64,000 nucleotides of DNA from Eledone cirrhosa (Eukaryota), in contig OZ024741.1 in assembly GCA_964016885.1 (NCBI GenBank), positions 365,552,001 through 365,616,000 on the forward strand, given 5' to 3'. The position numbers were made by a program, and so were the translations under genes. A model generated the notes under the pieces. That model did no database searches, was not told the origin of the DNA, and saw only the letters and a list, made by a program, of their open reading frames with translations. How positions within the stretch are numbered: the stretch's first letter is position 1; each line of letters begins with the position of its first letter. Below are positions 37,337-39,355 of this stretch, piece by piece.

Positions 37337-38290
37337 TATATGAAAGACGTAAAATGAGAAAATTATAAAAATTAACTTACCTACTAACATTTCACTCCAA
37401 CTAATTAGTTTCTGAAAGGGAATAAACATGGTTTCCAAATGGAAAGCATGGAGAAACCGTTTTGTCATTAGGAAGTCTGTTCTCAGCTAAGTTACCAGGA
37501 GATGCGTGGACACAGGGAACTTATACAAAAATAATTGAGTGGATGGAAAAAAGCAAGCGTGGACTAAATTCCAAGACATTGAAAAAATCACTGCCTACTT
37601 GGTCGGTGGCAAATTCAAAAGCATCAATCACGTGACATCGAGGTTAATCAGTGAGGAGAGCGGTGTTAAAAAGACAGTAGCCGAGCCATGACTATAGTAT
37701 CAGTTTTGGCAAATTTTTGCTCAACAAAATAATTTGGAGATAATTACAAAGAATTAGTATATCTATCAACATATATATACAGATGCATACCTATGCTAGC
37801 AAATATATAGGCTATGTCTTAGTAACTTTGTGGTTCAATGCAAGGGGATGCATAACAATTATATGAAAGACGTAAATTAAGAAAAGTATAAAAATTAACT
37901 TACTAAAATTTCACTCCAAGTAGGCAGTGATTTTTTCAATGTCTTGGAATTTAGTCCACGCTTGCTTTTTTCCATCCACTGAATTACTTTTGTATAAGTT
38001 CCCTGTGTCCACGCATCACCTGGTAACTTAGCTGAGAACAGACTTCCTAATGACGAAACGGCTTCACCATGGTTTGCATTTGGAAACCATGTTTATTCCC
38101 TTTCAGAAACTAATTAGTTGGAGTGAAATTTTAGTAAGTAAGTTAATTTTTATAATTTTCTTATTTTACGTCTTTCATATAATTGTTCTGCATCTCCTTG
38201 CATTGAACCACAACGTTACTAAGACAAAACCTATATATGCTAGCATAGGTATGCATCTGTATATATATGTTGGTAGATATACTAATTCTT
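37337..38290. mobile_element. 523-bp non-coding HHR monomer (family J): ~1.1 tandem copies plus an inverted permuted copy; HHRs at 37394-37476 (-) and 38042-38124 (+)
   Basis: tgaaagacgtaaa recurs at 37341 and 37864. 37922-38290 is the reverse complement and reads across the unit junction. HHR ACTTC-CTAATGA-[long stem II]-GAA-ACTAATTAGT-T-GGAGT. Confidence 0.82.
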
Positions 38291-38403
38291 TATATATATA
38301 TATATATATATATATATATATATATCTGTGTGTATATATTTACATATATATATATATATATATATATATATATATATATATATATATATATATATATATA
38401 TAT

Positions 38404-39355
38404 ATAAGGAATTTATATCTAGTAACATTTATATACACACAGATGCATATCAATGCTAGCAAATATATAGGTTTTGTCTTATTAACAATGTGGTTCAATG
38501 CATGGGGTTGCAGAACAATAATATGAGAGACGTAAAATAAGAAAATTATAAAATTAACTTACTTACTAAAAAATCACTTCCAACTAATTAGTTTCTGGAA
38601 TGGAGTAAATATATTTTCCGAAGAAACGTATAGAAAATCATTCCGTCACCAGGAAAGTCTTTTTCCGTATAGGTCTCCAGGCATAGCGAGGACACTGGAA
38701 ACTTATTAAAAAAATAATTCAGTGGAATGGAAATAGCGATGCGTGGACTGGATTCCAAGCCATTGAGAAAATCACTGCCTCTACGTCCGTGGCAAATTCA
38801 AAAAGAATCAATCACGTGACATCGAGGTCAATCAGTGGAAAGCGAGTGGTTATTAAGACAGCGGCTAGCTTACTACCATAGTAGCAGTCATTGCCAAATA
38901 TTGCTCGACAAATGAATTGGAGATAATTATAAGGAATTTATATCTAGTAACATTTATATACACACAGATGCATATCAATGCTAGCAAATATATAGGTTTT
39001 GTCTTATTAACAATGTGGTTCAATGCATGGGGTTGCAGAACAATAATATGAGAGACGTCACGTGATTGATTCTTTTTGAATTTGCCACGGACGTAGAGGC
39101 AGTGATTTTCTCAATGGCTTGGAATCCAGTCCACGCATCGCTATTTCTATTCCACTGAATTATTTTTTTAATAAGTTTCCAGTGTCCTCGCTATGCCTGG
39201 AGACCTATACGGAAAAAGACTTTCCTGGTGACGGAATGATTTTCTATACGTTTCTTCGGAAAATATATTTACTCCATTCCAGAAACTAATTAGTTGGAAG
39301 TGATTTTTTAGTAAGTAATTTAATTTTATAATTTTCTTATTTTACGTCTCTCACA
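38404..39355. mobile_element. 525-bp variant of the family J monomer: ~1.25 tandem copies plus an inverted copy; HHRs at 38576-38658 (-) and 39219-39301 (+)
   Basis: 38404-38533 is repeated at 38929-39058. 39056-39355 is inverted. HHR ACTTTC-CTGGTGA-C-GGAATG...CATTCC-A-GAA-ACTAATTAGT-T-GGAAGT. Confidence 0.82.

Follow-up and report, generated by a model that had tools for sequence, protein, structure and literature searches.

The described systems closest to the repeat reported here are the metazoan non-LTR retrozymes (PMC7229834; Li 2026, bioRxiv 10.64898/2026.07.22.740005) and the Penelope-like elements of the Hydra clade (PMC8557442). The retrozymes are non-coding and low in G+C, carry one type I hammerhead, occur in more-than-unit copies and have been demonstrated as circular RNA. 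They are proposed to be moved by Penelope-like elements, and the case for that machinery has so far been built on hammerheads in common, on co-occurrence and on similar terminal repeats (PMC7229834; Li 2026), with Li 2026 tying them to Penelope-like terminal repeats. PMC7229834 uses none of the words "inverted", "microsatellite" and "target site", the sections of Li 2026 covered here leave the ends of the repeats unmapped, and 8 of 9 Xenopus retrozymes in the latter study did not cleave. A circle model is already in print as a proposal (PMC4209133; discussion of PMC7229834).

For Penelope-like elements in general, PMC8557442 lists partial tandems, an inverted 5′-truncated copy, a 30–40-bp tail often found at one end and microsatellite targets, and calls the way in which such tandem, inverted and tailed insertions form an open task. 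Hydra-clade elements nearly all target (TA)n, and among their hammerheads (PMC8557442, File S2) many have a mismatched stem II base and a stem III of the form ACT..AGT, and U17 is frequent. Poseidon of Anolis carolinensis (PMC11167929) has two internal reverse transcription start sites downstream of the hammerhead with a tail between them, and an AT-rich target; in vitro, both target strands were nicked and extended, insertion was independent of hammerhead cleavage, and the start site showed no strand difference. The literature covered, mostly as titles and beginnings of abstracts and with subscription journals and repeat databases outside its scope, contained no retrozyme with two mapped start sites or a Hydra-clade link.

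We analysed a window of 64,000 nt from the 3.0-Gb genome of Eledone cirrhosa, in which positions 37337-39356 hold two fold-back insertions (A and B) with a TA tract between them. These are independent events, of different subfamilies, within one TA tract. Their units measure 523 nt (37337-37859) and 525 nt (38403-38927), the sizes given in the preliminary description, and are ~79% identical. Positions on the unit are circular coordinates that start, in RNA sense, with the base immediately following the hammerhead site (+1), and hammerheads were located by pattern search; S1 (~+61) and S2 (~+179) are positions of RNA-sense 3′ ends. The features are:

37233..37341, no strand: (TA)n target tract to the left of insertion A
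37337..37922, minus strand: long arm of insertion A (locus L001), 586 nt or 1.12 units, with its RNA-sense 3′ end at S1 (+62), position 37337
37394..37476, minus strand: type I hammerhead of the A long arm, core CTAATGA (G5A), predicted cleavage between 37399 and 37398
37916..38294, plus strand: inverted arm of insertion A, 379 nt or 0.72 unit, 3′ end at S2 (+177)
38042..38124, plus strand: type I hammerhead of the A inverted arm, core CTAATGA at 38047-38053, GAAA at 38106, GUU site ending at 38119
38291..38406, no strand: (TA)n tract separating insertions A and B
38403..39058, minus strand: long arm of insertion B (locus L031), 656 nt or 1.25 units, 3′ end at S2 (+179), position 38403
38576..38658, minus strand: type I hammerhead of the B long arm, core CTGGTGA (A6G)
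39054..39356, plus strand: inverted arm of insertion B, 303 nt or 0.58 unit, 3′ end at S1 (+61)
39219..39301, plus strand: type I hammerhead of the B inverted arm, core CTGGTGA at 39225-39231, GUU site ending at 39295

Both insertions have the architecture first described for them, more than one tandem unit followed by an inverted copy (1.12 + 0.72 units in A, 1.25 + 0.58 units in B), and the inverted arm of A (37916-38294) does run across the unit junction. The arms overlap at the inner junction by 7 nt in A and by 5 nt in B, and 3′ of the inverted arm of B lies a short (AT)n followed by (TG)n. The unit has a G+C content of ~34% and, again as described, no ORF, the longest stop-to-stop frame being 72 aa even when the unit is treated as a circle. 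All four hammerheads in the window are core-mutated, with one change each that is common to both arms of the given insertion. An Rfam search of 34000-43000 (E ≤ 1) returned no hammerhead family, and its matches were mostly to microRNA families on microsatellites.

The preliminary description had assigned to each monomer a type I hammerhead with a palindromic stem III and the cores CTAATGA and CTGGTGA, and all of this is borne out: there is one such motif per unit, with the palindrome AACTAATTAGTT in stem III. Among 240 hammerhead candidates, 212 have a core with at most two changes, including 143 with CTGATGA, the consensus that had been anticipated, and 35 with CTGACGA; 179 of the 212 fit CTGANGA, giving a family core of CUGANGA ... 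GAAA with in-core variation mostly at N7. Stem II, previously taken to be branched, is instead a 5-6-bp stem that leads through an internal loop to a hairpin (most copies: 49-52 nt), opening with GGAA/TTCC (84 copies), GAAA/TTTC (81), GCAA/TTGC (14) or GTAA/TTAC (12). At its base, next to the core, stem II has a C.A mismatch in 201/212 copies, and the NUH cleavage triplet has U17 in 212/212, as GUU in nearly all. The covariation of stems noted between the two window variants holds across subfamilies. With stem I open-ended, 97.3% of cells in stems I, II and III were paired in 29 copies (27 diverse copies with intact cores and the two from the window), against 25-54% in slid controls, the shuffle control of this test being inflated by relatedness among copies. 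Two stem II pairs vary on both sides, and one pair occurs as AU, GC, UA and CG; stem III is uninformative on covariation because it is invariant.

The unit carries a type I hammerhead motif for which self-cleavage is predicted. In four of five single motifs the predicted fold pairs the core with the palindrome, so that a lone hammerhead would be blocked until dimerised; dimer-dependent cleavage of such motifs has been described (PMC4209133; PMC6765202). Two or more hammerheads are present in 62 loci. In insertion A, insertion B and one further locus (L150), an inactivating core change is common to every hammerhead; therefore either cis activity is unnecessary for copy movement or the copies were later homogenised.

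The repeat occupies thousands of TA repeats in the genome, often as fold-backs. A 19-mer across the hammerhead cleavage site has 12,089 exact genome matches, which count motif copies rather than insertions, and the reversed control has 0; the number is far above what chance would give. Genome DNA searches gave 2,188 and 1,936 candidates, with 40 scored from each. As an unbiased set (not length-selected), we merged the first 100 of 3,124 matches to the 21-mer at +41..+61 into 59 loci, all located on the first 94 Mb of contig C1; this set, the loci from the DNA searches and the 19-mer, and the window gave 131 loci for analysis after removal of overlapping segments and three local duplicates. At four loci (L034, L035, L042 and L047; G000:C4, 38.10-38.11 Mb), the same insertion recurs every ~2.5 kb through local duplication, and three of the four were left out of the counts. 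Clustering produced six subfamilies with at least three loci, 6-29% apart. Judged by eye, the arms of a single insertion fall in one subfamily, the clear mosaic being L022, where (817-2057) one arm changes subfamily (~25% different) near the S2 region and then stands head to head with a 5′-truncated Hydra copy. Contigs from two sequencing runs of unrecorded kind cover the unit and are uninformative on expression. The insertions differ from the described retrozymes in being dispersed and 0.2-5 units long, in that over half are fold-backs, and in that priming in (TA)n uses two fixed sites. The unit length lies inside the 51-972 bp range of Li 2026 but above the 150-450 bp of PMC7229834; circular RNA, on record for those retrozymes, is proposed for the unit.

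The RNA-sense 3′ ends of the 93 arms of at least 40 nt in the unbiased set fall at S1 (48 arms), at S2 (39) or elsewhere (6). A TA repeat adjoins 83/87 of the arms ending at S1 or S2; the earlier statement that all ends abut (TA)n is right for the outer ends of both window insertions. Fold-backs are present in 32/59 unbiased loci: 28 pair S1 with S2, one S1 with S1 and one S2 with S2, and two have another end. The two sites are thus paired in 28/30 callable fold-backs (P = 4e-7 versus even odds). Among the 78 fold-backs in all 131 loci, 60 are mixed-site, 3 same-site and 15 with another end (mixed = 60/63). S1 and S2 each end in TATA-like sequence directly 3′ of predicted hairpins, the sequence matching the target, and are separated by a tail of 118 nt that contains a short covarying hairpin. 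Target-site duplications of more than 4 bp are not readable, because the targets are (TA)n. The inner 5′ ends are variable and scattered round the circle, and inner junctions do not recur: 78 fold-backs gave two near pairs and no identical one. Insertions do not inherit the junction of their donor. The preliminary description had copies starting at freely permuted points of the unit. On the circular map this is true only of the inner 5′ ends; the 3′ ends keep to two positions (+61/+179), one for each arm, and the copies are therefore not freely permuted. Both features of the Penelope-like insertion signature, the partial tandem with an inverted 5′-truncated copy and the one-end tail, are present.

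The same pattern is seen in an intact autonomous family. The Hydra-clade family H3 has a 784-aa ORF with the RWK, DKT, CxCX5C, CxxC and CxH motifs, which are the Hydra motifs of PMC8557442 (section 11). A Pfam search had no match in the four Hydra-type frames and, in the two Neptune-type frames, matched GIY-YIG and RVT_1 below threshold only; the clade assignment rests on the motifs of PMC8557442 for that reason. At 16 H3 loci, chosen from the hit list with paired or long hits favoured, 16/16 fold-backs pair +60 with ~+202, the outer ends are TA repeats and the arms reach 1.73 units. Three further Hydra-type families end at +47/~+185, +49/+196 and ~+45/~+134. The end spacing in the Hydra families of this genome is ~90-147 nt, as compared with 118 nt for the tail of the unit and the published 30-40 bp (PMC8557442). 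The proposal of a retrozyme-like non-coding parasite with Penelope-like fold-back integration is supported by the CUGANGA family core, by the lack of an attached ORF in every sampled copy and by the matching insertion pattern of H3; free circular permutation is not supported.

Because the fold-back arms end at two fixed sites as in Hydra-type elements, the unit was likely copied by a Hydra-type enzyme. It shares with Hydra-clade elements (PMC8557442) the (TA)n target, a hammerhead near the 3′ end with a stem II base mismatch and often U17, partial tandems, the inverted 5′-truncated copy and the one-end tail; it differs in its lack of an ORF and in having ~50 nt in stem II. It has no sequence in common with the six sampled Hydra-type families (~50,000-60,000 endonuclease candidates per search lay beyond those scored), and the Hydra clade is thus proposed for the enzyme from shared behaviour, not descent. 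A profile search of 140 loci returned true unit copies only (best other match E = 0.096), and the word TGCTAGCA common to the unit and one Hydra tail is not significant. Two of the six Hydra-type families have no hammerhead of their own within the flanks examined. As in Poseidon, two internal start sites lie downstream of the hammerhead with the tail between them and the target is AT-rich. Poseidon priming, however, is not homologous to the target, whereas the two sites of the unit are TATA-like and match it; and Poseidon shows no strand difference in start site in vitro, whereas the arms of one insertion of the unit almost always end at different sites (PMC11167929).

Other Penelope-like sequences were recorded alongside. 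The locus L244 (793-9626) represents H3, a very young Hydra family with a 3,177-nt unit, an intact 784-aa ORF and ~85 nt in hammerhead stem II, and forms an 8.7-kb palindrome with arms 99.9% identical. The window holds Hydra-clade ORF remnants at 33564-34895 (minus strand) and 17334-19867 (minus strand), with the CxCX5C linker in both and DKT in the latter; the former is a member of a young family that includes 758-aa frames at other places in the genome. At 60426-61856 (minus strand) a Neptune-type RT + GIY-YIG remnant is followed by a minimal hammerhead. Neptune-type elements were rejected as partners of the unit, their hammerhead being minimal, without stem III and unlike that of the unit. 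Naiad elements, considered on account of the "HHR_half_core" note on cephalopod Naiads in PMC8557442, were set aside rather than rejected, the families sampled in this genome being Hydra- and Neptune-type. The stem III motif of the unit is absent from the published consensus files, in which line breaks could hide a match. We also discarded retrozyme-Hydra chimeric fold-backs (L022/L181 and L153/L182, head to head), which may be nested insertions, because L181 has an S2-type outer end on either side and L182 a degenerate Hydra part.

We put the probability at about 0.6 that the 525-nt family is a non-autonomous passenger of Hydra-clade Penelope-like elements, probably on a circular template; the figure is no higher because a passenger role, of which we are highly confident, is combined with a circular step that we hold with appreciably less assurance. 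A copy longer than the unit would be transcribed, its hammerheads would dimerise through the palindrome of stem III and cleave in that form, and the unit RNA would be ligated. At a (TA)n tract, a Hydra-clade enzyme would introduce a nick into each strand, and reverse transcription would be primed at two fixed internal RNA sites, one per strand, at short TATA-like stretches able to pair with the nicked target. The reverse transcriptase would copy stretches of differing length, completing more than one turn in ~40% of arms, and microhomology would serve to join the two cDNAs head to head. More-than-unit arms would regenerate donors with two hammerheads.

As to the template, 108 passes cross the hammerhead site versus 120 entering +30, 35/89 arms exceed one unit (maximum 4.87 units), and the hammerhead junction is exact in 241/257 passes, the rest looking like substitutions with no gaps. 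Such scar-free read-through of up to 4.9 units fits a circular template and is no proof of one. The stop rate per quarter unit rises about two-fold or more, from 0.15-0.19 to 0.31-0.46, between 0.75 and 1.75 units, as would be expected of an enzyme running into an earlier RNA-DNA hybrid; the limited length of a linear template would raise the stop rate too. Six monomers folded as circles gave z of -2.1 to -8.3 versus 25 crude shuffles each, the sense strand folding better than the antisense. Locus-private alleles are shared within insertions at 17/228 tandem sites and 7/176 arm sites (12/96 insertions), against 0/262 between loci. At L039 and L244, units inside one arm differ by up to 3.5% while the junction-proximal parts of the arms match; the match thus tracks the junction, a sign of later conversion that weakens the shared-allele evidence. 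Some variants occur in only some units of an insertion, and unit differences within an arm are unexplained by a single monomer circle unless conversion came later. From these patterns we infer, as the preliminary description had proposed, a probable circular RNA origin of the copies. Two further comparisons were dropped: A-to-I editing of the template (88 A>G versus 122 T>C, as base counts predict, with no strand bias), and within-locus versus best-other-locus identity, which is uninformative as the best of many neighbours is biased low.

A competing account keeps the passenger and the two-site priming and replaces the circle, as unneeded, by a linear multimeric transcript, uncleaved or partly cleaved. 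We consider it rather unlikely, and several observations suit it. Later-pass 5′ ends are enriched 2-4 times at +1..+35, directly past the cleavage site (three selected sets: 1.06-1.53 versus 0.27-0.38 stops per 100 nt, P = 0.0006-0.03; unbiased set: 0.51 versus 0.22, P = 0.06; this interval was picked post hoc, with the data already seen), which fits some cleaved linear templates, and dead-core insertions, differing units inside an arm and the scarcity of arms longer than two units (6/89) also speak for it. Unprocessed RNA was, moreover, the dominant substrate in vitro (PMC11167929). Yet no 5′ end lies exactly at +1, the +1..+35 stretch is 80% A+T, and junction scars of template jumps are absent. 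All arms are 5′-truncated, so that without regeneration their length would shrink in each generation; at least six subfamilies, as much as 29% apart, have nevertheless persisted, and donor junctions are not inherited.

Much less probable is that the unit is the pLTR of an unseen autonomous element and its copies are the 5′-truncated ends of that element. The ends, target and tail pattern do match an autonomous element, and the ~150 loci examined are a sample from many thousands. However, the H3 ORF starts ~45 nt past S2, and the arms pass the corresponding slot of the unit through ~250 non-coding bases straight into the next hammerhead, in 55 covering passes of the unbiased set. Where the Penelope-like proteins of the window have matches near arms, these matches either run antisense to the arm or lie apart from its 5′ end, and no arm among L001-L180 leads in sense into a Penelope-like frame. 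No sampled copy contains an RT + GIY-YIG ORF or is fused to one in sense, and none shows the attachment to a Penelope-like ORF that the preliminary description had raised. A shade less probable again is a first arm made from RNA with a second arm made as a snap-back DNA copy, unequal arms arising through later central deletions. The near-perfect palindrome of L244, with its arms matching in register, and the non-consensus alleles common to both arms of insertions would agree with it, but gene conversion between inverted arms also accounts for in-register identity. Against a snap-back copy, the outer ends of a fold-back differ by exactly the tail, each has its own (TA)n, and the longer arm can be either one.

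Hammerhead repeats other than the 525-nt unit are also present. A second non-coding type I hammerhead family lies at 51553-52085 (plus strand; core at 51743), with a long stem II, a T.T mismatch at the stem II base, a GUA site, a unit of ~690-720 nt, TA-bounded ends and some inverted copies (3,899 candidates, 40 scored); it has no clear likeness to the 525-nt unit. The flanks of L001-L180 contain at least 12 further type I hammerhead families with a palindromic stem III, at least one of which is the 3′ end of a Hydra family. Elsewhere in the window, a 336-aa frame at 711-1721 (minus strand) appears, from its translation, to resemble a LINE AP-endonuclease region.

Non-LTR retrozymes are a known kind of element, and the combination of tandem, inverted copy and one-sided tail in microsatellites is already published for Penelope-like elements (PMC8557442). 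New here are the integration footprint of a retrozyme, the near-strict one-site-per-arm rule in a passenger and an autonomous element, the long tails and a test system for Penelope-like integration. The integration footprint of the retrozyme is, in full, that of one particular clade, and young Hydra copies whose 784-aa ORFs are intact occur in the same genome; the one-site-per-arm rule, hinted at in print by the one-end tail, is near-absolute in passenger and host element alike. Tentatively, and at somewhat less than even odds, we suggest that Penelope-like elements, and the retrozymes that travel with them, integrate when a dimeric enzyme reads a single circular RNA twice, from two fixed sites, one per nicked (TA)n strand, and rolls past the ligated hammerhead junction. 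If this is true, a single rule would yield the tandem, inverted and one-sided-tail structures, and the 525-nt unit would be the minimal substrate. With a 525-nt RNA, a (TA)n target and an intact ORF at hand, the choice between a circular and a linear template, and two-site priming itself, can be put to a direct test.
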